Program-made: the position numbers and the translations under genes | The notes under the pieces: model-generated | Told to the model about the DNA's origin: nothing | The model's input: the letters and a program-made list of their open reading frames with translations, nothing else | Database searches by the model: none | Assembly (NCBI GenBank): GCA_021738625.1 | Contig: JAIPBS010000015.1 | Location: 1 to 64,000, forward strand | Origin: Bacteroidales bacterium | Lineage (GTDB): Bacteria > Bacteroidota > Bacteroidia > Bacteroidales > JAIOZK01 | Direction: 5' to 3' | DNA length: 64,000 nt | Shown here: positions 35,865 through 55,416 of the stretch, in pieces | How positions within the stretch are numbered: position 1 is the stretch's first letter | Layout of the letters: every line of letters starts with the position of its first letter

Positions 35865-36977
35865 TCATTTTCGTCCAAGAGCCGGCAACAGGAATATAAA
35901 CTCGGAACCTGCTCCCGCTTTGCTTTCAACGCGAATACTGCCTGCATGGGCATCAATAATCTTTTTCACAATAGCCAGACCCAGGCCGGTGCTTTTCTCA
36001 TCGGCTGTGGGCCGTACCGAAGTTTTGGAAAAGGTTTTGAACAACAGGGGCAATTCCTTTTCGGGTATTCCCGGCCCCTGGTCCTTAACAGAAACCCGGG
36101 CATATCCCCCCTTTTCCTTAAGCTCAACCTCTACATTTGTCCCTGCTTCGGAAAACTTAACGGCATTGGATAGCAGGTTATTCATCACCTGCTCGATTTT
36201 ACCCATATCCGCATTTACCGGCAAACTATCCAAAGCCGTCTTTATATCGATCCGAATATCCTTCTTATCTCCAAAAGGTTTGTTCAGGCGAATTGACTTG
36301 CTTACAAGTTGAAGCAAGTCAAAAACTTCCATATCGAGCTTCACCTTGCCCGATTCAATGCGCGCAAAATCCAGCAGCTCATTCAACAGATCCAACATAA
36401 ACTGGCTTTGCGATTCAAGGGTTTTCAGGATATCCATTTCTTCATCATTCAATCTGTCGCGCAATTCATCCTGCAAATAATCGGAATATGACATAACCAG
36501 GCCGATTGGGTTGCGCAGATCGTGCGCGGCAACGCCCAGAAACTCATTCTTCTGCTCATTCATCTGCTGAAGTTCCGTGTTTTTCTTGTACAACTCACGG
36601 CTAAGATTATTCAGCTCATTGTTGAGCGCGAGTAATTCCTGTCTAAGTTTGACATTTTCTTTTTCACTTTGTTCGCCCAAAACCAAGGTAAGCTCATCAT
36701 CTGTTTTATAAAAACTGAAATAAAATGTTTCGGGAAGATTTTCGGGCGTTTTCACATTCAGCAAAAGGGGGCCATTGCTCTCCAACAGCTTATCCAGGCT
36801 CAATTCACCGGTAAAATCAAGAATAAGGTTCCGGATATTTTTACCCACAATCTCAGCACCCAATATCCGTTCGGCAAAAACATTGGATTTTTTAACAAAG
36901 CCCCTTTCATCCATAAGCATCATGATGATACTTGCATGCTCATTGACATATTTATTCAGGATAGCCGACTTCTTCAT
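35865..36977 (-). CDS. Sensor histidine kinase (PAS - coiled coil - HisKA - HATPase)
   Basis: HisKA H-box (GVAAHDLRNPIG), with N, G1 and G2 boxes (NLLSNAVKFS, DQGPGIP, GLGLAIVKKI). Confidence 0.85.
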   Translation of the reverse strand: MKKSAILNKYVNEHASIIMMLMDERGFVKKSNVFAERILGAEIVGKNIRNLILDFTGELSLDKLLESNGPLLLNVKTPENLPETFYFSFYKTDDELTLVLGEQSEKENVKLRQELLALNNELNNLSRELYKKNTELQQMNEQKNEFLGVAAHDLRNPIGLVMSYSDYLQDELRDRLNDEEMDILKTLESQSQFMLDLLNELLDFARIESGKVKLDMEVFDLLQLVSKSIRLNKPFGDKKDIRIDIKTALDSLPVNADMGKIEQVMNNLLSNAVKFSEAGTNVEVELKEKGGYARVSVKDQGPGIPEKELPLLFKTFSKTSVRPTADEKSTGLGLAIVKKIIDAHAGSIRVESKAGAGSEFIFLLPALGRK

Positions 36978-36983
36978 TGCGCA

Positions 36984-37622
36984 TCAATTGTAATTTCCAA
37001 TAAATGACTCGAGTTCCTCAAGGCTCAGGATCAATTTAACCTCATCCATATTTTTAATTAGATTTTGACCTCCCCATCTGAATGCCTGACCTCCGACAAT
37101 TATGGATTGGGACGGAAAGTTTTCCCTGATCAGATCGACCATTTCCTTCATCACGGAAAAATTAAAAGAAACGCTAACGGACAATGCGATGATATCGGGC
37201 TTCCTTTCACTGATCATCGACAACACCTCGCTTTGTGGGGTATTGGCCCCAAGGAAATACCCATCCCATCCGTTCATCTCAAAGATATCCGCAACCATGC
37301 GCGCCCCCACCTGATGATACTCATTGGCCAGGCATGTAACAACCGCTCTTCTCCCTTTTCGCTCGGTACTGAACATGTATGGGTAAACCATACTCATTTG
37401 CCGCTCCACCAGTGAAGTTGCCAGATGTTCTGTGGCTACGCTTAATTTGTTGTGCTCCCATAGTTCCCCCACCTGATAAAGTGCGCGCTGAAAAAGATCT
37501 TTATAGATTTGCCTTATTCCAACCTCCTGATCAATCAAATGGTTAACCGTTGCAACAACTGCTTGCCGGTCGCCATCTAGCAGGGCCTCGAAATATTTAT
37601 TGTAAAGCTGATCCGTTATCAT
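36984..37622 (-). CDS. Stand-alone CarH-type cobalamin (B12)-binding photoreceptor-like domain protein
   Basis: An N-terminal four-helix bundle carrying Wx9EH (ELWEHNKLSVATEHLA) plus a Rossmann B12-binding domain with ExHxxG (ANEYHQVGARMVADIF..GWD). No DNA-binding domain. The start overlaps the stop of the hybrid kinase at 37619..39559. Confidence 0.7.
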   Translation of the reverse strand: MITDQLYNKYFEALLDGDRQAVVATVNHLIDQEVGIRQIYKDLFQRALYQVGELWEHNKLSVATEHLATSLVERQMSMVYPYMFSTERKGRRAVVTCLANEYHQVGARMVADIFEMNGWDGYFLGANTPQSEVLSMISERKPDIIALSVSVSFNFSVMKEMVDLIRENFPSQSIIVGGQAFRWGGQNLIKNMDEVKLILSLEELESFIGNYN

Positions 37623-39559
37623 TTTCGCCCGTTAAGGTATTTTGCGATTGTATCGAGCAGTTGATTTCTCCTGATCGGTTTTTTCAAATAATCGTTGCAA
37701 CCCGACTCCAGCACTTTGTCCCTGTCGGTTGAAAGGGCGTAGGCTGTTTGCCCGATGATGGGAACCTGCTTATCCAGTTTGCGTATTTCACGCGTTGCTT
37801 CGTATCCATTGAGTTCAGGCATTTGAATATCCATTAGAATAAGATCAACTTTTGATTGTTTATCAAACATTTCGACAGCCACCTTCCCGTTCTCAGCTCT
37901 GATCACCTTTGCCCCTGTCGGTTGTAAAATGGTCTCCACATATAGAAAATTGGAATCGACGTCTTCAGCTACCAGGATCACTCTATCTTTGAAATTGTAT
38001 TCCCCGGCAGATTTCTCTTGCAGCAGCCCCTTCTTTTCTCGTTCATGCCTTTTTGCTTTAGAGGGCAAGGAAAAATAAAAAGTTGAGCCCTGATAGAGTT
38101 CGGATTCAAGCCACATGCGGCCACCCATTTTTTCGACCAGGCTTTTGGCAATGGTCAGTCCCAGCCCGGTTCCTCCAAATTCCCTGGTATTGCTGTCATC
38201 AACCTGTCTGAAACGTTCAAAGATCACGTCTTGTTTTTCTTTCGGGATGCCCAGGCCGGTATCCATCACCCGGATAACAATTTCGTCATTTTCAATATAA
38301 CAGGCCAACTCCACCAATCCACTTTCCGTAAATTTAAATGCATTGCCAACCAGGTTGCGGATGATCTGCTCAATCCGGCCCGGATCGGTTCTAACCTGGG
38401 TATCATTGGGGGTTTCAAGACGGAATTTGAATTCAACATTTTTTATCCGATCGTTGAATTCCCGCAAAAGACTTTGATATACATCGCCGACCAGATCATT
38501 GATATCGACCCATTTCCGATCAACTTCGAGCAGACCGGCCTCCAACTTTGCCACATCAATGATGTCGGTTATAATGCGCAAAAGGGTTTCACTGTTTCGC
38601 TGTATGTTTTTCGTAAAATCACGGACATCTTCGCGGTTGAAAGCAGGATCACCCAGCAGGTCGGAAAAACCGATAATGGCATTCATGGGCGTCCTGATTT
38701 CGTGCGACATATTGGCCAGGAAAGCAGTTTTAAGCTTATCGCTTTTCTCGGCTTCCTCTTTGGCCTTGATCAATTCCTCCCTGGCCTTCTTGAGTTCGGT
38801 GATGTCGGCAATGATACCATCCTGAAACAAGTGATCGCCATCCGAATTAAAAATGGTCCGGATATTAAATGAACCCCAAAAACTGCTCCCATCCTTTCTT
38901 AACAGTTCAATCTCATAATTTCTTACCAGTCCGTCCTCATTCAGTTTATCCAATAATGCCTCTCTTTCTTCAGGCCTGACATAATAATCCCGGATCGGTT
39001 TTTCAAGCGCTTGCTCCAGTTGTTCAAAACCAAACATTTCAAGATAGGACGGGTTGGCATACAGCAGATATCCATCCAGGGTAGAACGATAAAGGGCCAG
39101 GGGGACATTGCTGCGCAAGCCTTCAAAGGCGGATTCGGTTTCCCTGAGCTTTTCCTCTGTCCTGCGTTTCTTGTCTGTTTCCTCTTTTCGTTTGAGGGCC
39201 TGTTCGATGGCAGGAGGCAATCTGTAAAGGCGTTCTTTTACCACATAATCCCAGGCGCCCGACTTGATGGTCTGCGCCGCGGTTTCTTCATCCAGCGAAC
39301 CCGTAACGATGATAATAGGCAGATCGGGATTGATTTTTTGCAAGTCGCTGATGGCTGAAATGCCATCATACTGCGGCAGGCCATAGTCGGAGATGACCAG
39401 ATCGGGGGACTCACTCTTGATGGCTTCCAGGTAATCAATTTTGTTATCCACACTGTGGAAATCAAAATTGAATCCGGCTTTTCGGAGTTCGCGGCAAATC
39501 AGTTCCACGTCAGCCTTCAAATCTTCCAGTATCAATAGTTTAAGTTGCTTTATCTTCAT
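37619..39559 (-). CDS. Hybrid sensor histidine kinase (REC-PAS-PAS-HisKA-HATPase-REC)
   Basis: N-terminal REC (LLILEDLKADVEL...ISDYGLPQYDG), PAS modules, HisKA (ANMSHEIRTPMNAI), HATPase, and C-terminal REC (ILVAEDVDSNF...LMDIQMPELNG). Confidence 0.9.
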   Translation of the reverse strand: MKIKQLKLLILEDLKADVELICRELRKAGFNFDFHSVDNKIDYLEAIKSESPDLVISDYGLPQYDGISAISDLQKINPDLPIIIVTGSLDEETAAQTIKSGAWDYVVKERLYRLPPAIEQALKRKEETDKKRRTEEKLRETESAFEGLRSNVPLALYRSTLDGYLLYANPSYLEMFGFEQLEQALEKPIRDYYVRPEEREALLDKLNEDGLVRNYEIELLRKDGSSFWGSFNIRTIFNSDGDHLFQDGIIADITELKKAREELIKAKEEAEKSDKLKTAFLANMSHEIRTPMNAIIGFSDLLGDPAFNREDVRDFTKNIQRNSETLLRIITDIIDVAKLEAGLLEVDRKWVDINDLVGDVYQSLLREFNDRIKNVEFKFRLETPNDTQVRTDPGRIEQIIRNLVGNAFKFTESGLVELACYIENDEIVIRVMDTGLGIPKEKQDVIFERFRQVDDSNTREFGGTGLGLTIAKSLVEKMGGRMWLESELYQGSTFYFSLPSKAKRHEREKKGLLQEKSAGEYNFKDRVILVAEDVDSNFLYVETILQPTGAKVIRAENGKVAVEMFDKQSKVDLILMDIQMPELNGYEATREIRKLDKQVPIIGQTAYALSTDRDKVLESGCNDYLKKPIRRNQLLDTIAKYLNGRK

Positions 39560-39561
39560 AA

Positions 39562-40017
39562 CTATTCAGATTTGTAATCCGGTATCTCATTCATCAACAG
39601 CCAGTAAAGGCCGATCTCAGCGACGGAATCAACAAATTTATTGTAATCAACCGGTTTTACGATATAACTATTCACACCCAGTTCGTAACTTTTCACCATA
39701 TCACGCTCTTCACGCGAGGTGGTTAACACAACTACCGGAATGTTTCTGGTTCGCTCGTTGCTTTTCACTTTTTCAAGCACTTCCAGCCCGGTAACTTTCG
39801 GAAGCTTTAAATCCAGCAGAATCAATTTGGGTAATTCGTTGTTGTTTCTATCTTTAAAGGTGTTTCTACAAAAAATGTAATCAAGCGCTTGTTCTCCGTC
39901 GCGAACCACATGCATGCGCACACCGAGCTTGTGCTTTTTCAGTGCGCGTTCTGTAAGTTCCACATCGTTAGGATTGTCCTCAACAAGCAATATTTCTGCT
40001 TTTTCGCGTATTTCCAT
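39562..40017 (-). CDS. Single-domain response regulator of the phytochrome-associated (Rcp1-like) type
   Basis: ILLVEDNPNDVELTERAL...LLDLKLPKVTGLEVLEKVK...PVVVLTTSREERDMV...NSYIVKPVDYNKFVDSV closely resembles stand-alone REC partners of photoreceptor kinases. Sits 2 nt upstream of the hybrid kinase. Confidence 0.8.
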   Translation of the reverse strand: MEIREKAEILLVEDNPNDVELTERALKKHKLGVRMHVVRDGEQALDYIFCRNTFKDRNNNELPKLILLDLKLPKVTGLEVLEKVKSNERTRNIPVVVLTTSREERDMVKSYELGVNSYIVKPVDYNKFVDSVAEIGLYWLLMNEIPDYKSE

Positions 40018-40061: not shown

Positions 40062-41843
40062 TCATTCAGCATATGTTTTGGGTAGTGAGAAAGAAAAGCA
40101 GGCGCCCAGTCCGGGTTTGGCTTCCGCTTTCACCTCGCCTCCATGTTTTTTAACAATGCGTTTAACAAGCGCCAACCCAACGCCGGTTCCTTCAAATTGA
40201 TCGACTGTATGCAGACGTTGAAAAACATTAAAGAGCTTATCAACATATTTCATATCGAAGCCGACACCGTTGTCTTTGACTGAAATCCAGTGGTAAGCGT
40301 CGTTTTCTTCTGCCTTTATTTTTATTTGGGATTCACTTTCATTCCTTGTAAATTTAACGGCATTGGATATTAGGTTGAATAACACCTGCCTGATCAGATT
40401 TTCATCCCCTTCAACTTTCGGGAGAGGCGCTATATCAAAACTTAATTTTCTCTCTGCAGTTTCCTTGCTGACCTCATTTACAACATCATGCGTAATGCTT
40501 TGCAGGTCCAGCTTTCTTTTTTTCAGTTTTTTTCTTCCTGCTCTTGAAAAGTCCAGCAGATCCTGGATCAGATCGCCCATTTTCTGGGTATTTTCCCGCA
40601 CAATACGGAGGTACCTTTTTCCGTCTTCATTCAGTTTATCGGTATAATCTTCGAGCAAGATTTGAGAAAATCCGTCAATGGCCCTAAGGGGAGCCTTCAG
40701 GTCGTGGCTAACCGAATAGGAAAAAGCTTCCAGTTCCTTATTCACCTCTTCCAGCTTTTTGTTGATCCTGTTCATTGCTTCCCGGCTTTCATTCACATCT
40801 TCCAGCAAATAGGTCAGTGCCAACTGAGACTTTTCCAGGTCTTCTTTTTGATTTTTCAGTTCGCTTGTTCTTTTGTTAACGACCTGTTCGAGGTCCTTCG
40901 AGTAATCTTCAATTTTTTGTGCAGCTTTTTTCCGTTCAGAGATATCCCTTGCGACAATTAAAACATCATCTTCCTTGTTTTCACTTCTCATAATGGAAGA
41001 ACTAACCTCAACAGGTATATAGTCACCATCGGAATTAATGAATACCGATTCATACAAAAAAATTGCCTTTTCGTCTTTCATTCTTTTTTGTTGCCGGGCA
41101 ATGGTTTTCTTTCTGTATGAGGGCGCCACATAATCCATCACATTTGAACCGATCACATTGTGGGGGCCTTTACCGATCAGGTTCAAACCAGCCTGGTTTA
41201 AATATTTTATTTCGCCCTTGAGGCCGTGTATGCAGATGATATCACGGGCAGTTTCGGTGAGCAATCTATATCTGCGTTCGCTGGTTTTCAGGGCATTTTC
41301 CGCTTCCCTTACCTTTGTAATATCCTGGCCGAACTCGGCAACACCTATGATCCCGCCATTTTTATTTTTCACGGGTACGGATTTAAAACGATATATTTTC
41401 TCCCCTACCTTGACTTCTCTGTAATTTGTTTTTTTATTTTCCAGGGATTCCAACACGTGACAATTCCAGCAATGCGCATCCTGCCCTTCACGCCACACCG
41501 TATAGCAAATTTCTCCAATGCATTTATGAGCACGGTGCCCCAGATAATTAACTGCTGCCTGGTTGAGTATTTTAATCCTCAAATCCTTATCGTAATAGAA
41601 AAACAGATCATCAAGCGAATCTAAAATCCGGCTTCGCTCCGTCTCCAATCGTTCAAGCTTTTCATTCATCTGCCAAATGATGTCATAGCTATTTTCATAA
41701 ATCAACCTGATGTTTTCTTCTTTGTATTCAGGTTCTGTTCCCTTTTCGGATTCCAGCCCGGCATTCTCTTGCAGTTCAATAATTTTAGAAATCAACTGCT
41801 TTTTTGTAAGCTTGTAGTAACGTCTTATTTTTGCTTCGTCCAT
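40062..41843 (-). CDS. Multi-PAS sensor histidine kinase with a Cys/His-rich PAS insert
   Basis: PAS domains, HisKA (SVSHDLKAPLR), HATPase. The first PAS carries C108..C113..H124-C125-W-N-C128-H129 (CxxCH). Confidence 0.85.
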   Translation of the reverse strand: MDEAKIRRYYKLTKKQLISKIIELQENAGLESEKGTEPEYKEENIRLIYENSYDIIWQMNEKLERLETERSRILDSLDDLFFYYDKDLRIKILNQAAVNYLGHRAHKCIGEICYTVWREGQDAHCWNCHVLESLENKKTNYREVKVGEKIYRFKSVPVKNKNGGIIGVAEFGQDITKVREAENALKTSERRYRLLTETARDIICIHGLKGEIKYLNQAGLNLIGKGPHNVIGSNVMDYVAPSYRKKTIARQQKRMKDEKAIFLYESVFINSDGDYIPVEVSSSIMRSENKEDDVLIVARDISERKKAAQKIEDYSKDLEQVVNKRTSELKNQKEDLEKSQLALTYLLEDVNESREAMNRINKKLEEVNKELEAFSYSVSHDLKAPLRAIDGFSQILLEDYTDKLNEDGKRYLRIVRENTQKMGDLIQDLLDFSRAGRKKLKKRKLDLQSITHDVVNEVSKETAERKLSFDIAPLPKVEGDENLIRQVLFNLISNAVKFTRNESESQIKIKAEENDAYHWISVKDNGVGFDMKYVDKLFNVFQRLHTVDQFEGTGVGLALVKRIVKKHGGEVKAEAKPGLGACFSFSLPKTYAE

Positions 41844-41870: not shown

Positions 41871-43394
41871 CTAATCCGTATCATTATCTTTACTTGTTCC
41901 CAACTGAGATTCAAGCTTTTTCATTCGTTCTTTAAGTTCATTAATCCTGAATTCCCTGTCAACAAACAGCTTATTGAAATGCTTGAGTTCCTTATTTTTC
42001 TCCACAAGGCTATTGTTTGCTTGTTCTAATTCTGCGGTTCTTTCACGAACCAGTTCCTCCAGCTTCTCTTTATGTTGCTGAACCTCTTCCTTTGCCATGT
42101 GAAGTTCTGTAACATCCATAACCGTTGAAACCATGGTGTTTTGATCGAACAATGGAATATTGACTGCATTGATAAACCGTTTATTACCATCTTTTGTTGT
42201 GGCTACAATATTCTCCCAGTGCATGCGGGAGGGATCACCGGAGGCAACATCTTGTTTTACCTGGGCTGCAATCTTTTCCCTGTAAGTCCTATCAGGATAT
42301 GCTTTTTCAAAAAAACTATTGATATCTTTCAAATCTTCTCTAGGCCAGCCGTATATTTCAGAAAACTTATCATTAATATAGGTGGCGATTCCTTCATCAA
42401 ACTCATTCAATGCAAGGCCAATAGGAAGATTGTCAAGCACGGTTTCAACAAATTGATTTTGCTTTTCGAGAGCCAATTTTACCTTAACCCTTTCAGTAAC
42501 ATCCTGCACCGTTCCGGTTATTATTGTCACTTTACCGGATTTATTCTTAACCGGTGTTCCTATGGCATGATAATAAGCTATTTTTCCATTAGGCAAATTA
42601 ACGCTTAAATCAATGTCGTAAGGCTTTGATTTCGTTACAGCGTTGCTGATGCATTTTTCAAGCGCCTTCACATCTGTGGGACTATGATAAGCCATCACCT
42701 CCTTGTAATCAGGCGGACCCAGTTTGGGATCGCGTTCATACAATTCATACATCATATCGGCCCACCATACCTTGCCTTTCTCAACATCAAATTCCACATG
42801 TCCGATCCGGGCAATTCTCTGAGCTTCACTGAGTCTTCTTTCGTTTTCCTGCAAAGCTATATCAGCATTTTTCTTATCAATGACCAAAGAGGCATGCTGA
42901 ATAAACGCTTCTATTTCACCGAAATTTGATGTATCGGTTTGTGGCTTGGTGAGTATGCTGATATTGGCAAATACCTTTGCGTTTCTTCTAATTGCCATGC
43001 AATACAATTCTTCCAACGACAGCAGTTTTTTCACCTTTTCGGCACTTGATTTATTGATCTTATTTCCGAAAAACAAAGGAAGGTTCAACTCCACCTTCAC
43101 CAATTTACCTTTGATGATCTCATAGTAAAAATCCGTTTTGATCTTCCCCCTGATCTTCCTGAAATCGAAACCCAGGAGATCGATAACTTTATGCATTTGA
43201 TTGCCGACGCCTTTGATCGCATGCAATTTCCAGAAATCATCTTCCGTATCATAATCAACAAGGGTCACAATGCCTCGACCACCCATCATCCGGTATATCT
43301 CCTCAACCAGATATTTGTACACCTCATCAATGGAACTTAACTCCTGCAAATAGAGGATTGTTTTGCCTAAATCAATATGATCGGTTTTGCCCAT
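41871..43394 (-). CDS. Kinase-less GAF/PAS signalling protein with C-terminal coiled coil
   Basis: GAF-like N-terminus, two PAS domains, no H-box or ATPase. C-terminus ...LVRERTAELEQANNSLVEKNKELKHFNKLFVDREFRINELKERMKKLE. Confidence 0.75.
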   Translation of the reverse strand: MGKTDHIDLGKTILYLQELSSIDEVYKYLVEEIYRMMGGRGIVTLVDYDTEDDFWKLHAIKGVGNQMHKVIDLLGFDFRKIRGKIKTDFYYEIIKGKLVKVELNLPLFFGNKINKSSAEKVKKLLSLEELYCMAIRRNAKVFANISILTKPQTDTSNFGEIEAFIQHASLVIDKKNADIALQENERRLSEAQRIARIGHVEFDVEKGKVWWADMMYELYERDPKLGPPDYKEVMAYHSPTDVKALEKCISNAVTKSKPYDIDLSVNLPNGKIAYYHAIGTPVKNKSGKVTIITGTVQDVTERVKVKLALEKQNQFVETVLDNLPIGLALNEFDEGIATYINDKFSEIYGWPREDLKDINSFFEKAYPDRTYREKIAAQVKQDVASGDPSRMHWENIVATTKDGNKRFINAVNIPLFDQNTMVSTVMDVTELHMAKEEVQQHKEKLEELVRERTAELEQANNSLVEKNKELKHFNKLFVDREFRINELKERMKKLESQLGTSKDNDTD

Positions 43395-43541: not shown

Positions 43542-46500
43542 TCATTCCTGCACTTTTTTCTCCAGTTCCTTCACTTTCTCACGCAACTCCTTAATCCTGA
43601 TTTCACGGCCCACGAACAATTTATTCATCCGTTCAACTTCTTTGTGTTTGTCTTCAATTTCCGCGGTTCGTTCCTTAACAAGATCTTCCAGATGCTGTCT
43701 GTGCTTATCCAATTCGTTTCGTATTTCAATATCTTTTGTCACATCCCTGAGTATTGAAACCATGCCAATGATCTCTCCTTCATAGTTTTTAACTGCCGAA
43801 GAAACAACCTCGCCAATGAATGCATTGTTTTTAGCAGTTTTCATATGATAGCGGTTAATACCAAGGAATTCACCCTTCATAATGCTGCTTACATTGCGTT
43901 TGGCAAAGTCCTGATCTCGGTCATCAATCCAATCATTAAGGTGAGTCCCAATAATTTTCTCCTGATTTGTTTTAAGGATTTTTCCCATATTCGGTGAAAC
44001 AAACTCAATTTCACCCCTGAGGTTTGAAAAGGTGATGGAATCAGGACTGGCTAAAACAAGTGATTTATACAATTCTTCACTTTCGGCCAGGGCCATGGTT
44101 GCCTTTTTTCGTTTCGTGATATCAGTTAAACCACCAACAATGGCAATTGTCTTTCCATTTCTTACCAGCGGGGCCTCATGTACCTCAACCCAAACCTTTT
44201 TTCCATTTTTATGCCTTAATTCCAGTTGGTAGGTTGGCTGTGGTTCGGCTTTCTCAATAGCCTTCACGGTTAAACCATATCCTATTTCATTAATGGGATT
44301 TTCTGTTGCAAGATCCATCCAGACTTCCGGGATCTCTTTTGGGGTATATCCCAGAATATCTTCAACTTGCGGACTCACATAGGTTAGTTTATGATCGGTG
44401 GTATGGCTGTAAAACATATTGGTGCTGTGCTCAATGATATTGCGAAGCTTTTCTTCACTCTCTTTAAGCTCCCGTTCGGCTTTTTTTCTTTCCGAAATAT
44501 CTGTATGCGTTCCCACCACGCGGATCGCCTTGCCGTTTTCATCGAAAACAGCTTCGGCTTTGGAGAGTATGTCCACCCAATGCCCCTCTTTATGTTTCAT
44601 TTTGAACTCCATCTCAAAACGATCTCTTTTGCCGGCTAAATGCTCTTTCAGCATTTCCCATGATTTCTTTGCATCCTCAGGATTAGTCAGTGTTTCCCAA
44701 ACCGAAAAACTGTTTTCCAGCTCATCTTGAGCATAGCCCAACATACCTTTCCAGCGGGGGGAATAATATATTTCATTGGTTTCAAGGTTCCAGTCGTATA
44801 GTCCGTCATTTGCAGCATTCATGGCCAGGTTAAAACGCTCCTCACTTTCCTTAATTTGTCTTTGGGCTTCCAGCTTCTCGGTGATTTCCAAGAACATCAC
44901 TGCAACAATCATGGGGGAGGTTTGGAAGGCATACACCTCAAAAGCCCCCTTAATTCCTTCATGGTCATAGTCGATCTGATCGGTAAACCAGGAACGGCCA
45001 GTCCGGGCAATTTCCCGGTATATTTCCGGCACTTTGGTTTCGATAAGCCCCGGGAATGCTTCTTCTATGGTTTTCCCGACAAACCGGCTGCAATCCGTTT
45101 CCAGCATAGCATTGCCGGCTTCGTTGTAGCCAGTGAATAATAGGCGGTCGTTGTCCCGAAGCTCATAGGTCAGCGTGCCCATGGGTGTTGATTCGATGAT
45201 GTTTCTGAAGCGTTTCTCGCTTTCTTTTAAAGCCTCTTCGTAATTTTTTCTTTCAACAATCTCACCAATCAGTTGCGCCGATGTTGCCAGCCTTTCTTTT
45301 GCCAAATCAATGATAAATGCGGGACGCGTTTCATATTTTTCCGATTTCTCCTTTAAACGCTCGAATGAAACCTGATACTTTTCAGCAATTTTCTTCAATT
45401 CCGCATCATCTTTGGGCGGATCGCCATATCCAAAATTGATCGCTCCGATCACCTTTTTATTGGCAAGGATTGGAATGGCATAAAGATTCAACCCTCCGGC
45501 GCATTCAATATCGACAGCCTTCTGTTTTTCCATACATTGCAAAGAAGCATCCTTCCAACAGGATTCATGACAATGCCATTTTCCCGAATCGAGGGCTTCC
45601 TTGTTGTTGCATCCTTGACAAAGATTCCTGGAAGCCTCATCCATAAAACTGCACCATTCAGAAGAGAAAATCCCAACCGCATAATCTCCGTTTATCTCAT
45701 AAACCGCTGCCGAAGTCTCCAGTAAATCCAGGTAATCGGAAACGATTTCATTCAGCATTTTTTCACCGACAGCCTCAAGGATGGTACGTTGGGTATTGAG
45801 TTTTCTCAGATCGCCATATGCCGGGATATGCGGTTCTTTTTTCTTTGATTTGGGGTTAAGCAGCCACTCGATCTTTTTCAGCTCTTTTTCGGCCATATGT
45901 TTTTCGGTGATATCTTCCCCTGAGCTAAGGGTTCCTGTTATCTCACCATTTTCTCCCTGCAACAGGCTGTTATGCCATGCAATCATTCTTATTTCGCCGC
46001 TCCGGGATACAACAAAGTTTTCGACATACTCAAGCTGTTCGAGTTTCCCTTTCATGATGTCGTTGAAAACATCCTTTATTTTGGAGATATTATCTTTTAG
46101 TAAAAAGCTATCAAACCAGTTCTTGCCAACGATCTCATCCTCGCTGTAACCCAGTATTTCTGCTGCCTTTTTATTCGCCAGGGTTACAATGCCTTCCTGG
46201 TTGATCGCGACAAACATCACTCCTGCCACATCAAGATAATGTTGAGCGCGGTTTCTCTCAATTTTAAGCTGCTCATTTGTCTTTAGGATCAGCTCATTAC
46301 GTTCGGCCAGTTCTTCGTTTTGGGTTTGAAGTTCTTCATTTTGGGTAGCGATCTCTTCGTTCTTTTCCTGAATGATCTCTTCCGATCTTTTCGCTTCGGT
46401 AATATCTCTCCAAATGGTATATATACTTTGATCGGGAGCTGTGGGCAGGTATGTAAGGGAAACATCAATCCAGCGCTCTTTGTTGTTTTTGTCGGTATGC

Positions 46501-47441
46501 AACCATTCAAACCGCTGATAACCCTTTTTTATCGCATCACGAATGTAAGCTTTTGCCTTTTTTTGTGAATCTTCTCCATCGGCCTGCTTGGGAGGAGATA
46601 CCTCCCATGGTTTTTTCCCGACAATCTCTTCATAATCTTTATAACCCAAAAAATCCAGGGCGGCCTGATTTGCCTCCACAAATTGATCTCCCTGCAACAT
46701 TAGGCTTGGATCGGTTGATTCTTCAAATAGCAAGCGATATCTCTTTTCGCTTTTTTGAAGTTTCACATATAAATCCTCAAGTTCTTCATTGGTTTGTCTC
46801 AGCTCTTCATTGATGGCCTGAAACTCATGGTTTTGCTTATCTAACCTTCTATTCTGTTTTTGTATTCTTTCATTTTTTCTTTTAAGGTCAAGCTGTGTGT
46901 TTTTTAACTGGCTGATATCCGTGATAACAAGCATGATCCGGTCGGCATAATGAAGGTCGTTTAAATGTCTGGCACTGATCCTGACATGAACCCGTAGGTT
47001 GTGGTGGTTTAATAGATCAACTTCCAGACTGGCATCTCCTTTCTTTTCAACCAGGCTTTTTAAAAGCCTGTAAAAGTCATCCTGGTCATCGGGATGAACA
47101 AAGCTAGAAAAGGGCTGCGACAGCAGGCGGGAACGTTCAAGCTCTAACAGATCAACTGTTGCCAGGTTGGAGTTGGTTATCCGAAGGTTCTTGTCGAGGG
47201 TAATTAAAGATTCGGGTGAAAACTCAAACAGATCGTTGTATTTCTCTTTTTCAATATGGTGGTTTTCTTCAGACTTTCTGAGTTCTTCGTTTTGAAGATC
47301 CATTTCAATTTGATAAACATTGAGTTCTTCTATCAGTCTTTCCAGTTTGTGGGCGTATTTTCTGAAGTTTTCCACCCGGCCTCTTTCCTGAAGAAGCTTT
47401 TCGACCTTTTGCCGGAGTTGATTGGTTTTGCTTGAAGGCAT
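43542..47441 (-). CDS. Kinase-less multi-PAS/GAF signalling protein (1299 aa) with cysteine-rich sensory insert and C-terminal coiled coil
   Basis: At least seven PAS-like modules and a GAF/PocR-like module containing seven Cys and two His in about 50 aa (EWCSF..LCQGCNN..WHCHESC..LQC..IEC). No HisKA or HATPase. C-terminus ...LVKERTAEIEDKHKEVERMNKLFVGREIRIKELREKVKELE. Confidence 0.75.
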   Translation of the reverse strand: MPSSKTNQLRQKVEKLLQERGRVENFRKYAHKLERLIEELNVYQIEMDLQNEELRKSEENHHIEKEKYNDLFEFSPESLITLDKNLRITNSNLATVDLLELERSRLLSQPFSSFVHPDDQDDFYRLLKSLVEKKGDASLEVDLLNHHNLRVHVRISARHLNDLHYADRIMLVITDISQLKNTQLDLKRKNERIQKQNRRLDKQNHEFQAINEELRQTNEELEDLYVKLQKSEKRYRLLFEESTDPSLMLQGDQFVEANQAALDFLGYKDYEEIVGKKPWEVSPPKQADGEDSQKKAKAYIRDAIKKGYQRFEWLHTDKNNKERWIDVSLTYLPTAPDQSIYTIWRDITEAKRSEEIIQEKNEEIATQNEELQTQNEELAERNELILKTNEQLKIERNRAQHYLDVAGVMFVAINQEGIVTLANKKAAEILGYSEDEIVGKNWFDSFLLKDNISKIKDVFNDIMKGKLEQLEYVENFVVSRSGEIRMIAWHNSLLQGENGEITGTLSSGEDITEKHMAEKELKKIEWLLNPKSKKKEPHIPAYGDLRKLNTQRTILEAVGEKMLNEIVSDYLDLLETSAAVYEINGDYAVGIFSSEWCSFMDEASRNLCQGCNNKEALDSGKWHCHESCWKDASLQCMEKQKAVDIECAGGLNLYAIPILANKKVIGAINFGYGDPPKDDAELKKIAEKYQVSFERLKEKSEKYETRPAFIIDLAKERLATSAQLIGEIVERKNYEEALKESEKRFRNIIESTPMGTLTYELRDNDRLLFTGYNEAGNAMLETDCSRFVGKTIEEAFPGLIETKVPEIYREIARTGRSWFTDQIDYDHEGIKGAFEVYAFQTSPMIVAVMFLEITEKLEAQRQIKESEERFNLAMNAANDGLYDWNLETNEIYYSPRWKGMLGYAQDELENSFSVWETLTNPEDAKKSWEMLKEHLAGKRDRFEMEFKMKHKEGHWVDILSKAEAVFDENGKAIRVVGTHTDISERKKAERELKESEEKLRNIIEHSTNMFYSHTTDHKLTYVSPQVEDILGYTPKEIPEVWMDLATENPINEIGYGLTVKAIEKAEPQPTYQLELRHKNGKKVWVEVHEAPLVRNGKTIAIVGGLTDITKRKKATMALAESEELYKSLVLASPDSITFSNLRGEIEFVSPNMGKILKTNQEKIIGTHLNDWIDDRDQDFAKRNVSSIMKGEFLGINRYHMKTAKNNAFIGEVVSSAVKNYEGEIIGMVSILRDVTKDIEIRNELDKHRQHLEDLVKERTAEIEDKHKEVERMNKLFVGREIRIKELREKVKELEKKVQE

Positions 47442-47606: not shown

Positions 47607-48335
47607 TTAAATCAAAAAGCTCAGATCGCTTCTGGGCTCAAATTCTTTAGGCTCCTCACCAAACTTAAACAACCTCAGGGGTTTTGCACCGCCCAATGTA
47701 ATTTTGCCATCCTCGACAAGCAGGTAGGAACTTTCCCGTAAACCGGCTACGGTGATCTCCCGGTTCACCACCAGGAATTCCTCAATCCGTTGCTGCCTGG
47801 TTTCGCCTGCATGACCGTCAGGATTTGCATCCAGATAATGAGGATTGATCTGGAAGGGGATCAGGTTGAAACAACCGAAGTTTTCGGGCTCGATAATAGG
47901 CATGTCGTTGGTTGTTCGCAAACTGGGGCAGGCCACGTTTGAACCGGCGCTCCAACCCATATAAGGGGTGCCCTCCAAAACTTTTTCACGAATGGCTTTC
48001 ATCAGCCCGAGCTTATGAAGCATATAAACCAGGTAAAAGGTATTGCCTCCTCCAACAGCAATGGCTTCGGCATCTTCAACCGCCCGTATGGGATTCTCGA
48101 ACTTATGTATCGAATATAGGTCGTAGCCGATTTCGCTGTAAACCGCTTTTACTTTCTTTTCGTATGCATCGAAGGAATGTTCCAGGCTTTCGTCAGAGAG
48201 CCCAACTCCCGCAAAGGGGATAAAAAGCACACTTCTTGCTTCCGTTCCGTTGAGGAATTCTTTAATGGCCTCCCGGGGCCAACCCAGGTATTCTTCTCCT
48301 GCATTCGTAGAATTACTGATCAATAACAATTTCAT
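47607..48335 (-). CDS. pepE: Dipeptidase E (peptidase S51)
   Basis: Collinear with E. coli PepE (LLLISNST...FIPFAG...VGGGNTF...GWSAGSNVACP..TTNDMPI..FQINPH..GHAGETR). Confidence 0.85.
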   Translation of the reverse strand: MKLLLISNSTNAGEEYLGWPREAIKEFLNGTEARSVLFIPFAGVGLSDESLEHSFDAYEKKVKAVYSEIGYDLYSIHKFENPIRAVEDAEAIAVGGGNTFYLVYMLHKLGLMKAIREKVLEGTPYMGWSAGSNVACPSLRTTNDMPIIEPENFGCFNLIPFQINPHYLDANPDGHAGETRQQRIEEFLVVNREITVAGLRESSYLLVEDGKITLGGAKPLRLFKFGEEPKEFEPRSDLSFLI

Positions 48336-52390: not shown

Positions 52391-55108
52391 TTAATTTTGT
52401 GTGTCTTGCCCATCATCCGTTTTTGGACCGCCTGAAAGATTCAGCTTTACGATTTGCCAACGGTAAGACCTTTTAAAAAAGCTAAACCACTTTTCGGAAT
52501 GCGTATAATTTTCAATTTTTTGTTTGTAGTCGATCTCGCTTTCCGGCTGATAATCATCCAGGGCAAGTGCAATGCCAACCGCTTTCTGCTGGTCAACAGT
52601 TTCGTGACGCGACAGACCCATTTCTTTCAGCACAAAAAGCATTTGTAGCGCAGGACGGGGGCGGCTGCTATTCATAAAATATCCGATGCTTGCAAATACG
52701 AGATCCGGGCTTTGTTGTTCAAGTAGAAATTGTTCGAAATGATCGTGCCTTATACCATAGCGTGTAATGTTGTTTTGAATATAAAACGTATCCAGGCGAA
52801 GATACTCAGGGATGACTGCAGAAAAGCCCTGCTCAAAGATATTATCCCTGATCCGTTTCATGCTTTTCTGATATTCGGAAACGGTAGCATATTTCTGAAT
52901 TGCTTGCAATGGGATACTATCTGTAAAATCACATTCATCCAGGGTTTTAAGTAGGTTCAATGCTTTTAAAAACTGCTCTTCCGCAGCCACGAAATCCCGT
53001 TTATCAACCAGGTTGAAACCCTGCATCACCACTTTTTCATAATCATTGATCCGTTTGTCGCAAATTAAAATATTCAGTTTCTCCCTGATTTTGTTCAGCT
53101 CCGTGCGATAATAAGGATCCAATTCGAGCCGGTAAAGTTGCATGTGTTCCTGCAAGCGTGTGAATTTGGGATAGGCATTTTGCAGGTCCTCGTTCCATAT
53201 GCTGAAACTAACCTCATACAGAAGCTTATCTCCAAGCATCCTTGCTGCTTTTTCGATGAGGCTGTCGATATTTGTAAACTGCGAGGCGTCAAGCGCTTTA
53301 TTGTCCCGAAGCTTGTTCAACTCTTCAAGCGCCTCCTTATATCCGCCCTTTCGGATCAGTTTTTCGCATTGGGAGATCAGTGCGATTTGGGCGGTGAATT
53401 CCACCTGATCAATATTTTTTCCAGGTTGGGATTGCACCACATCTTCATCCCCGTGTTTGTCAGCCTGGTATTGTTCCGCTTTATTCAACCATTTTCGGGC
53501 GGCTGAATACTCGCCTTTATTGAAAAGGGCACTGGCTTCGGCCAGGCATTTTTCATACATGGCCTGCCAGGCCTTAAGCTTAAGTTCACTGTAATTTTTT
53601 CGATTTAGCTTTACCGCAGGATTTTCCTCAATGATCTGTCTGGATTTGTCCAGATTTGCCAGTGCATCCTCATAATACTTTTTGTCGATCAAAGCAGCCG
53701 CATCCTTAAGGTAAGCATCAGCCATTTTACCATAAGCATTCCAAATCCCAAGTTTGTTGATGATATGCTTGCTGTTGTTTTCCTGGAAATTTTCTGCACG
53801 ACTCAGATAGATTTCCGCCATACTGTAATTACCGACCTCAATTGCCTTGATCGCCACGCTGAGCAATGAATTGTACAGACCGCTGATGGCTCTGGCCTGC
53901 TTGGTCCGTATCAAATCCCTGTTGCATTCGGCTTCCGTCGAATTGCAGAAGGAATTAAGTCCCTCAACAAATTCAAGGGCTTCATTGTAGTTCTCATTTC
54001 CAATACAATAATCGATCAGGATGAGATAGTTTTCGTAAAACAGTTTACTCATCCCGGCAATGTCCGGTTCAGTATCGATTTTATATTTCAGCAGGCGTTG
54101 CAGATTGCTGAAAAAATCCTTGATCTCTTCGCTGCTGTATTTCCTGGAAAGCAGGTCGTAAAAGGAATTCTCAAAGTAATGGCCGGCTTTGGAAGCCATG
54201 TGCATATATTGCTCAAGCTGCTTAAAATAAGGATAAAAATAATTACCGGGAACCCCTGCCCGGGCAACTCTTTGTTTGTTATAAATCTCTTGCTCAAACA
54301 ATGTATTCAGCCGCCCCGTTTTTAAACTAAAATCCTGTAGTTGATTGTAGAAGAATAAAGGATCATGATCCCGGTTGATATTGAGTTCGGTAAGAAATAC
54401 CTTTCTTGCAAGTATCTTATAAACCTGTTTAAAATCGAAAGGCAGGACTGCAAATTTCAGCAGGGCGTCATCTGCACCTTCATCCAGCTTCTTGAGTTGA
54501 TCAAGCAGTTGATCCAGGATCATGGACGATCCGTAATAATCGTTGATCAAGTCCATTCTCCGGACAAAGGCTTTACGGTCTTCCTGGCTGTAATAAAAGC
54601 GCAAGTCAGAAAGCTCAAGTCTAAGGTCCGCATTCCCGGTTCTGAACCGGATTGCGGCACTGATCCCCTTTCCGTTCAGATTTGCTGTTATGGTTTTTGC
54701 GAGAACGATCCGATCCTCTTTATCAAAACAATAAACCCGGAACTCGGCCATGGAGGGTTGTAAAATATCGGCAATATCGAATTTTCTGTAGGCCGTCGCT
54801 CCCTGAACCTCGGCAACATGAATATCAACAATAGCTTCCAGGATGTTTTCTTTCTCAAGAATATCGAGATCAGCGGTATATCCAAGAGAATAATTGACTG
54901 AAGAAACAGCCATCCCTTGCGATAAGGCAATTTCGTTTATAAAATAGGAGGTATTGAAAGATTTCGCATCAGGATGACTAATATTGGAAAAAACATATTT
55001 CCCACTGATCTCATTATGAAACAGATTTTTACCCTGTGCGAAAACAATATCCTGAAATGGAAAGCAAAGCAACAAACAAGCAATAAGCCTAAAAATCATG
55101 TAAAGCAC
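52391..55108 (-). CDS. Large secreted hypothetical protein (alpha-helical, TPR-like)
   Basis: 905 aa with signal peptide (CFPFQDIVFAQ) and a Y/A/L-rich helical repeat character. It is the first gene of the co-directional array, 71 nt upstream of the giant kinase. Confidence 0.5.
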   Translation of the reverse strand: MLYMIFRLIACLLLCFPFQDIVFAQGKNLFHNEISGKYVFSNISHPDAKSFNTSYFINEIALSQGMAVSSVNYSLGYTADLDILEKENILEAIVDIHVAEVQGATAYRKFDIADILQPSMAEFRVYCFDKEDRIVLAKTITANLNGKGISAAIRFRTGNADLRLELSDLRFYYSQEDRKAFVRRMDLINDYYGSSMILDQLLDQLKKLDEGADDALLKFAVLPFDFKQVYKILARKVFLTELNINRDHDPLFFYNQLQDFSLKTGRLNTLFEQEIYNKQRVARAGVPGNYFYPYFKQLEQYMHMASKAGHYFENSFYDLLSRKYSSEEIKDFFSNLQRLLKYKIDTEPDIAGMSKLFYENYLILIDYCIGNENYNEALEFVEGLNSFCNSTEAECNRDLIRTKQARAISGLYNSLLSVAIKAIEVGNYSMAEIYLSRAENFQENNSKHIINKLGIWNAYGKMADAYLKDAAALIDKKYYEDALANLDKSRQIIEENPAVKLNRKNYSELKLKAWQAMYEKCLAEASALFNKGEYSAARKWLNKAEQYQADKHGDEDVVQSQPGKNIDQVEFTAQIALISQCEKLIRKGGYKEALEELNKLRDNKALDASQFTNIDSLIEKAARMLGDKLLYEVSFSIWNEDLQNAYPKFTRLQEHMQLYRLELDPYYRTELNKIREKLNILICDKRINDYEKVVMQGFNLVDKRDFVAAEEQFLKALNLLKTLDECDFTDSIPLQAIQKYATVSEYQKSMKRIRDNIFEQGFSAVIPEYLRLDTFYIQNNITRYGIRHDHFEQFLLEQQSPDLVFASIGYFMNSSRPRPALQMLFVLKEMGLSRHETVDQQKAVGIALALDDYQPESEIDYKQKIENYTHSEKWFSFFKRSYRWQIVKLNLSGGPKTDDGQDTQN

Positions 55109-55121
55109 CTTCCTGAAAAAG

Positions 55122-55205
55122 TGCCCAAGAAAGGACTCGAACCTTCACGAGCATTCGCTCACTACACCCTGAATGTAGCGCGTCTACCAATTCCGCCACT
55201 TGGGC
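55122..55205 (-). tRNA. tRNA-Leu (anticodon CAG)
   Basis: Reverse complement folds as a cloverleaf: acceptor GCCCAAG/CTTGGGC, D-arm GCGG..AATTGGTAG, anticodon stem CTACA/TGTAG with loop TTCAGGG, a long variable arm, T-loop TTCGAGT, discriminator A. Confidence 0.85.
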
Positions 55206-55332
55206 AATTTACTTGTTAAGAACGTTATATTATACTGCAAAGTTAGTAAAAATCGAACTCTAAAGATTTTCTATTTTTCGGAGCTTGCACTCTTTCATGC
55301 TCCGTCGTATCATTACAATGAACAATTTTGTG

Positions 55333-55416
55333 TGCCCAGGACAAGAATCGAACTTGCACGTCCTAACGGACACATGGCCCTCAACCATGCGCGTCTACCA
55401 GTTCCGCCACCTGGGC
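55333..55416 (-). tRNA. tRNA-Leu (anticodon GAG)
   Basis: Reverse complement: acceptor GCCCAGG/CCTGGGC, anticodon stem CATGG/CCATG with loop TTGAGGG, a long variable arm, T-loop TTCGATT. Confidence 0.85.

Follow-up and report, generated by a model that had tools for sequence, protein, structure and literature searches.

In a 64-kb window (the whole stretch of DNA analysed, positions 1 to 64,000 of contig JAIPBS010000015.1 from a Bacteroidales bacterium), an open reading frame on the minus strand (43542..47441) encodes a cytoplasmic protein of 1299 amino acids that combines multiple PAS domains with one PocR-type domain, and it is in the latter that seven of the protein's eight cysteines lie. 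By curated criteria, the module that hosts this Cys/His segment is a PocR sensory domain (PF10114). It represents a distinct, apparently undescribed variant of that family, for which we use the name PocR* (the subfamily containing the window's domain), and our alignments show that a set of five cysteines and one histidine (Cys5His: C597, C608, C624, H625, C628 and C647) is conserved in this subfamily across Bacteria and Archaea. As a speculative proposal that we regard as possible but doubtful, PocR* would be a horizontally spread metallo-sensor, with a Cys5His iron-sulphur (Fe-S) or other redox- or ligand-reactive metal centre, that feeds a conserved kinase and single-receiver pathway in at least several hundred bacterial and archaeal species; the whole PocR family, including PocR itself and the methanol regulator MtaR, would then be metalloreceptors recognising small alcohols at a Cys3-ligated metal. 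In the literature searched we found neither a publication proposing PocR-family metalloreceptors nor any mention of compensating ligand substitutions across the family.

The cysteine-rich segment lies in a PocR-type domain

The PF10114 profile matches amino acids 561-722 of the protein (window 45276-45761) with a score of 39.5 bits (curated cut-off 23.9; E = 6.3e-10), and the match covers profile positions 6-154 of 162. With a conserved N-terminal cap (IEWLL...YGDL..LN) and the C-terminal helices included, the PocR* domain comprises amino acids 522-735 (45237..45878; this and all further coordinates within the protein are on the minus strand). The 64-kb window contains no further PocR or PocR* copy. 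An AlphaFold2 model of amino acids 541-735, built with 44 homologues, is very confident (predicted local distance difference test, pLDDT, 95.3; predicted template modelling score, pTM, 0.90). The modelled chain runs from an N-terminal helix through two strands, three helices and three strands to three C-terminal helices. This is a GAF/PAS-like alpha/beta fold in which a helical layer separates strands 2 and 3, and it is the three helices of this layer (domain residues 55-66, 73-79 and 83-99) that bear the Cys and His residues. A preliminary description of this DNA had spoken of a PAS/GAF-like module; that is right as to the fold, but the domain is not a generic PAS or GAF, as PF10114 scores above its curated cut-off.

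The Cys/His-rich string corresponds to residues 595-647 (window 45501-45659, given earlier as 45500-45655) and holds seven cysteines (597, 608, 611, 624, 628, 636 and 647) and two histidines (623 and 625). The preliminary description had counted seven Cys and two His in about 50 residues with a spacing of C-x10-C-x2-C ... HCHxxC ... C ... C, and both the count and the spacing are correct on re-reading the residues. The seven cysteines fall within residues 597-647, a Cys/His-rich core (45501..45653) situated partly on the helices that connect strands 2 and 3 and partly where strand 3 ends. This clustering is real and non-random: when eight residues were placed at random in 1299 positions, at least seven of them came to lie within 53 residues in 1 of 2,000,000 trials (analytic value ~2e-7). 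The entire 1299-amino-acid protein is identical on five contigs from separate assemblies, which rules out an assembly artefact.

Six residues are conserved throughout the PocR* subfamily

A word-indexed search returned 69 relatives of the domain at 46-67% identity, and in a one-genome-per-species collection at least 572 places encode a PocR* relative, the 80 best of which are 57-68% identical and were taken for counts. The bacterial carriers among these 80 best loci belong to Bacteroidales, Verrucomicrobiota, Desulfobacterota, Chloroflexota, Planctomycetota, Caldisericota, Cyanobacteria (among them Oscillatoria sp. PCC 10802), Gallionella and Polyangiaceae, and the archaeal ones to five lineages, namely Thermococci, Methanofastidiosia, Hydrothermarchaeales, Methanosarcinales and Hadarchaeota. 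Because the genome scan had used the pattern W[LHY]CHESCW, conservation was recounted in a set free of that bias: the 149 top-ranking cluster representatives of an exhaustive phmmer search with the target domain. This search gave 1234 hits, 1001 of them at E < 1e-30 (about 1,000 PocR* clusters), while the target domain had no tblastn match in a plasmid collection; PocR* is thus a sharply bounded subfamily. With Salmonella PocR as query, the plasmid collection yielded 45 PocR-bearing records.

Four cysteines, C597, C624, C628 and C647, are present in 149/149 representatives, C608 in 147/149 and H625 in 148/149, and the same six residues are kept in 79-80 of the 80 genome loci. C597 (codon 45651..45653; 80/80 loci) directly follows the invariant W596, and C608 (45618..45620; 79/80) is nearly invariant. 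The CHESC motif formed by C624-H625-E626-S627-C628 (45558..45572) stands at the start of the long helix with the invariant W622 and W629 on either side, and C647 (45501..45503) is in the 'ECAGGL' turn after strand 3. The three tryptophans are kept in 148-149 of the 149 representatives. By contrast, C611 (45609..45611) is private to the 1299-amino-acid protein (0/149), and both C636 (45534-45536; 10/149) and H623 (45573-45575; 56/149) are variable. The alignment that had been suggested as a check on the Cys/His positions therefore supports six of the nine and discards C611, H623 and C636.

The target matches all 66 columns that are conserved to at least 90%, as expected of an intact member of the subfamily. 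Across lineages the PocR* domain is 55-69% identical, with an average of 60% between the target and the 149 representatives, whereas full-length proteins are only 26-46% identical, so the domain is much more constrained than the PAS arrays that surround it. The PF10114 profile matches 47 of 48 full-length relatives.

PocR* compared with canonical PocR

The nearest known system is PocR itself (PF10114), exemplified by Salmonella enterica PocR, which responds to 1,2-propanediol and, as an AraC-type regulator, activates the pdu and cob operons. For comparison we drew together 53 distinct canonical PocR domains, taken from plasmid records and a profile search, and number them as in Salmonella. In this set C47 (in an 'F-C' pair), C60 and C82 (in 'C-H-A-G-L') are each present in 53/53, H83 in 46/53 and Q107 in 49/53; positions 63/64 read CD in 24 domains, SH in 18, SD in 7 and SW in 3. 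Profile-to-profile alignment of PocR* and canonical PocR with hhalign gives a probability of 96.4% and pairs 'ETGxPVDIEC647xGG' with 'KTGKPyIYrC82HAGL', C624 with C60, and C628 with position 63/64; a hidden Markov model (HMM) of the canonical set, run on the target, reproduces this pairing. The counterpart of C47 is C608 according to these profile alignments (hhalign and the canonical HMM), but C597 according to HMM-to-sequence alignment combined with secondary structure, and the first helix after strand 2 starts with an aromatic-Cys pair in the models of both the target and Salmonella PocR. Whichever pairing holds, PocR* carries one invariant cysteine more than the canonical core.

The target thus has the three invariant cysteines of the canonical domains and a fourth candidate ligand, C628, where these have Cys, His or Asp (63/64). 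It does not have H83 and the 'G-Q' motif (G106-Q107): A648 and Y672 take the places of H83 and Q107, and only the Gly is kept. Tyrosine at 672 is found in 143/149 members of the subfamily, and we take these replacements to mark a divergent subfamily rather than to exclude it from PF10114. While the canonical H83 is lost in PocR* (A648), a histidine is gained, H625, which lies beside C624 within the CxxC motif.

These alignments show the Cys-rich segment to be the signature region of the PocR family. Compared with Salmonella PocR, the target has about 14 more residues between strands 2 and 3, with three helices there in the target model and two in the Salmonella one; the additional part is a loop and short helix of about 16 residues that is missing from canonical PocR (roughly amino acids 607-622, 45576..45623, with alignment-dependent boundaries). 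The preliminary description had called the whole segment an insert. We reject a foreign insert, since the segment aligns to the canonical PocR core; the term is largely wrong for the Cys-rich stretch and apt only for the roughly 14 additional residues with their one extra invariant cysteine.

PocR* and PocR have in common the GAF/PAS-like fold with Cys-bearing helices between strand 2 and strand 3, the '..TG.P....C.GGL' motif of strand 3, the Gly of the 'GQ' motif, and an N-terminal or internal input position in signalling proteins. PocR* differs in its conserved N-terminal cap, its extra helix (~14 residues) and the change of Gln107 to Tyr672, and phmmer with the PocR* target domain apparently does not reach canonical PocR. 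Their settings also differ: PocR* is found in multi-PAS histidine kinases, canonical PocR in AraC regulators or in diol, glycerol, methanol and microcompartment operons. Canonical examples adjoin pdu, dha or glycerol dehydrogenase genes, and no diol, glycerol, methanol or microcompartment gene lies beside the target or in its gene cluster.

More distant likenesses are those of the fold. The effector-binding domains of the IclR family and GAF domains (KdgR, 1ysp; Thermotoga IclR, 1mkm; NifA GAF, 8jrc) are 10-20% identical, with Foldseek E values no better than 1.8e-3, and unlike PocR* they have no conserved Cys/His cluster. Free methionine-R-sulfoxide reductase (fRMsr; 4mmn, 3mmh, 1vhm) has a GAF fold with a catalytic Cys triad, but it is an enzyme and not a sensor, and at ~10% identity it resembles PocR* in fold alone. 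No structure of a PocR family member was found among the solved structures searched.

A candidate metal site in the PocR family

The canonical domains offer a candidate ligand set of Cys47, Cys60, Cys82, His83 and Cys63/His64/Asp64 (loci L085-L096, proteins P0330-P0374). Every canonical domain with only three cysteines in the segment has both H64 and H83 (12/12), every one without H83 has at least four cysteines (7/7), and every one without both Cys63 and His64 has an extra cysteine elsewhere in the segment (11/11). The sum of cysteines, H64 and H83 is never below four in the 53 domains, and is five in 31 of them. Metal sites typically show Cys, His and Asp replacing one another at a given position along with an extra ligand that wanders, and we regard this pattern of ligand compensation as suggestive, not statistical, support for such a site in PocR. 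The response of Salmonella PocR to 1,2-propanediol depends on R51 and D64, as defined by mutagenesis (PMC11264322). Each stands four residues after a conserved cysteine (C47 and C60, respectively), which places the Cys set along the sensing pocket. We found no report of a metal, a cofactor or a structure for any PocR domain in the literature searched, which did not cover the defining 2005 paper (PMID 15814558).

We favour a metal centre as the reading of these residues; a metal or Fe-S site is plausible and fits the family-wide pattern of ligand compensation. The preliminary description had taken the spacing to suggest an Fe-S cluster or a Zn/metal site, as a candidate redox- or O2-sensing input, and this is partly supported. 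Of the forms that such a site could take, we lean, with low confidence, toward a zinc-type or other mononuclear centre inherited from PocR. The six residues would hold the metal in the pocket that the helical layer and the beta-sheet enclose, and the core would probably be a tetrahedral Zn-type Cys3+1 site passed on from PocR. This centre would be, or would directly abut, the place where the signal is read, be that signal a small ligand, an oxidant or a thiol-reactive species.

Several points weigh against this picture. Six conserved candidate ligands are more than one tetrahedral site needs, and the alignments disagree on whether C597 or C608 corresponds to canonical C47. The compensation classes correspond to few clades and hence to few independent events. 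A 2024 biosensor-engineering study accounts for ligand binding by Salmonella PocR without a metal, using docking and mutagenesis (PMC11264322). Finally, the step from the sensor to a downstream kinase, discussed below, is drawn from gene neighbourhoods only.

The first alternative is an Fe-S cluster sensor, in which four of the six residues would ligate a [4Fe-4S] or [2Fe-2S] cluster whose oxidation, loss or nitrosylation reports O2, redox state or nitric oxide to the kinase. Known O2 sensors of the NreB/FNR type pair a PAS or cNMP (cyclic nucleotide)-like domain with a four-Cys [4Fe-4S] cluster; like them, PocR* is a cytoplasmic sensor domain with a conserved Cys cluster that would control a kinase or regulator. 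The very high conservation of the domain suits a cofactor-bearing one, the invariant tryptophans stand beside the Cys/His set (W596-C597, W622-x-C624 and C628-W629), the carriers are mostly anaerobes or sediment metagenome-assembled genomes (MAGs; Bacteroidales, Desulfobacterales, Chloroflexota, Caldisericota and methanogen-related archaea), and PocR* occurs in multi-PAS global sensor kinases and not beside catabolic operons. However, the spacing as read directly fits no classical Fe-S motif: NreB has C-x2-C-x11-C-x2-C, against C-x10-C-x15-CH-x2-C-x18-C in the 1299-amino-acid protein. The protein shows no detectable similarity to these sensors in Pfam and NCBIfam, with no NreB, FNR or Rrf2 model among the matches of the entire protein (E up to 0.1). 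The carriers also include an oxygenic cyanobacterium (Oscillatoria sp. PCC 10802) and, by assignment alone, MAGs placed in Polyangiaceae and Rhodobacterales. The homologous Salmonella PocR core, moreover, works as a sensor when E. coli is grown aerobically (PMC11264322), and this speaks, at least for the ancestral state, against an O2-labile cluster. Fe-S or O2 sensing is possible by analogy, though we consider a cluster of this kind somewhat doubtful.

We find it unlikely that the site is metal-free and acts through reactive thiols, by forming disulfides reversibly or by binding an electrophilic ligand covalently, a thiol redox switch in the manner of the Cys triad of fRMsr. A two-Cys switch does not need five invariant cysteines and a histidine, and both the interchange of Cys, His and Asp at 63/64 and the compensation between His83 and an extra Cys fit metal ligation better than disulfides; the likeness to fRMsr, at 10-11% identity, is one of fold only.

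Still less probable, in our view, is an organic cofactor (heme, bilin or other) ligated or attached by these residues, or a plain pocket for a small alcohol-like ligand of the sort proposed for PocR. The motif reads C-H-x-x-C and not C-x-x-C-H as in heme c, and most carriers are non-phototrophs. By direct reading the N-terminus of the protein has no signal peptide or membrane segment; with this order of residues (H-C-H-E-S-C) in a cytoplasmic protein, c-type heme was rejected. A plain alcohol pocket would leave six invariant metal-type residues unexplained, and unlike canonical PocR genes those of PocR* have no link to diol, alcohol or microcompartment operons. That the segment is a compositional accident or a functionless, lineage-specific decoration would agree with the lack of conservation of three of the nine listed residues (C611, H623 and C636), but with the other six invariant across Bacteria and Archaea, and odds of chance clustering as low as those given above, we give this practically no credence and, on the conservation data, count it as effectively refuted.

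Thousands of regulators of propanediol, glycerol, ethanolamine, methanol and microcompartment pathways carry an annotated PocR domain, and such domains are being engineered as biosensors; if the Cys/His set is a metal centre, this would change how ligand recognition in the PocR family is understood and engineered. PocR* would, if the proposal is true, be a new and very widespread two-component input domain in anaerobic and sediment microbes and archaea, in which the signals of large multi-PAS kinases are largely unknown. We do not regard PocR* as a new kind of system, but as a candidate metallo-sensor that is widespread, accessible to experiment and relevant to the whole PocR family.

A probable split kinase system around the PocR* gene

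Pfam and NCBIfam scans of the 1299-amino-acid protein return six to seven PAS domains and PocR, and no HisKA, HATPase, cyclase, DNA-binding or other output domain, in agreement with its earlier description as a kinase-less protein with PAS domains. Among 48 complete relatives, about 39 have PAS domains, 37 a kinase ATPase domain, 32 HisKA and 20 a receiver. The kinase core follows PocR* directly in twelve loci (L016, L018, L026, L031, L035, L036, L038, L045, L062, L069, L074 and L075), and the frequency of the kinase ATPase domain, together with a core that often comes right after PocR*, supports an input role for the domain.

In the window the layout is split: the kinase-less PocR* sensor, a kinase and a receiver are encoded by separate genes, the latter two downstream and on the same minus strand. 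The probable partner kinase is a PAS histidine kinase of 593 amino acids (40062..41843), whose dimerisation and histidine phosphotransfer (DHp) region and ATPase core are 39-46% identical to those of PocR*-fused kinases. The probable cognate response regulator is a single-domain receiver of 151 amino acids (39562..40017) with orthologues in PocR* loci: at 46-58% identity, these follow the PocR* gene in 18 of the roughly 60 loci whose downstream sequence is long enough, and in 12 of those 18 the gap between the two genes is shorter than 300 nucleotides. Between the sensor and kinase genes lies a gene for a PAS-only protein of 507 amino acids (41871..43394, minus strand), which has a C-terminal REFRIxELK coiled coil.

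The same REFRIxELK motif ends the 1299-amino-acid protein, the C-terminal coiled-coil tail of which (43545..43754) ends in FVGREIRIKELR (amino acids 1276-1287, window 43581-43616). A tail of this kind, about 65 residues long ('LN..LE..VAEKT..L.ERV.ELERFHDATI.REFRIKELR.EI..LK'), ends kinase-less PocR* proteins, a layout found in ten further loci (L030, L032, L039, L042, L046, L056, L057, L076, L081 and L084). Most of these have a kinase like the 593-amino-acid one encoded separately downstream, and several have the receiver beyond it. The tail has no match to a Pfam family, coiled-coil noise being all that the search returned. The tail may be a degenerate DHp-like helix or one for docking of the partner. 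We note that it sits where kinase-bearing relatives have the H-box helix of HisKA.

These gene neighbourhoods are read most economically if the PocR* protein serves as sensor subunit in a split kinase system whose signal goes to the 151-amino-acid receiver. A conformational change would pass down the C-terminal helix of PocR*, which in most relatives is predicted to run straight into the DHp of a histidine kinase. In the window, the 1299-amino-acid sensor would most likely act on the PAS kinase at 40062-41843, and this in turn would phosphorylate the receiver at 39562-40017.

A conserved cassette with the order PocR* sensor, kinase (fused or split) and 151-amino-acid single-domain receiver is seen across phyla and in an archaeal MAG (L016, L018, L028, L031, L035, L036, L045, L050, L053, L062, L069, L074, L075 and others). 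In the Oscillatoria loci a REC-PAS hybrid kinase comes next, which is 31-32% identical over its full length to the one at window 37619-39559.

Other features of the window

Between this hybrid kinase (37619-39559) and a further kinase (35865-36977) lies a minus-strand gene (36984-37622) for a protein of 212 amino acids with B12-binding_2 and B12-binding domains. It carries the motifs 'W-x9-E-H' (WEHNKLSVATEH) and 'E-x-H-x-x-G' (NEYHQVG), which resemble those of CarH-type adenosylcobalamin photoreceptor modules, and by analogy the protein may provide a B12-based light input to the signalling cluster. Prompted by the classical link of PocR to cobalamin, we considered this neighbouring B12-binding protein as a conserved partner of PocR*, and rejected this, as the 80 loci gave just a single weak hit.

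For an ORF of 905 amino acids upstream of the sensor cluster (52391-55108, minus strand), Pfam gives no match (E up to 1e-5). Two tRNA-Leu genes with anticodons CAG and GAG are neighbours on the minus strand (55121-55205 and 55332-55416). A gene for a PepE-like peptidase of family S51 (47607-48335, minus strand) is flanked on either side by a very large multi-PAS sensor gene of the same orientation, and this arrangement is repeated on the other contigs that carry the 1299-amino-acid protein.

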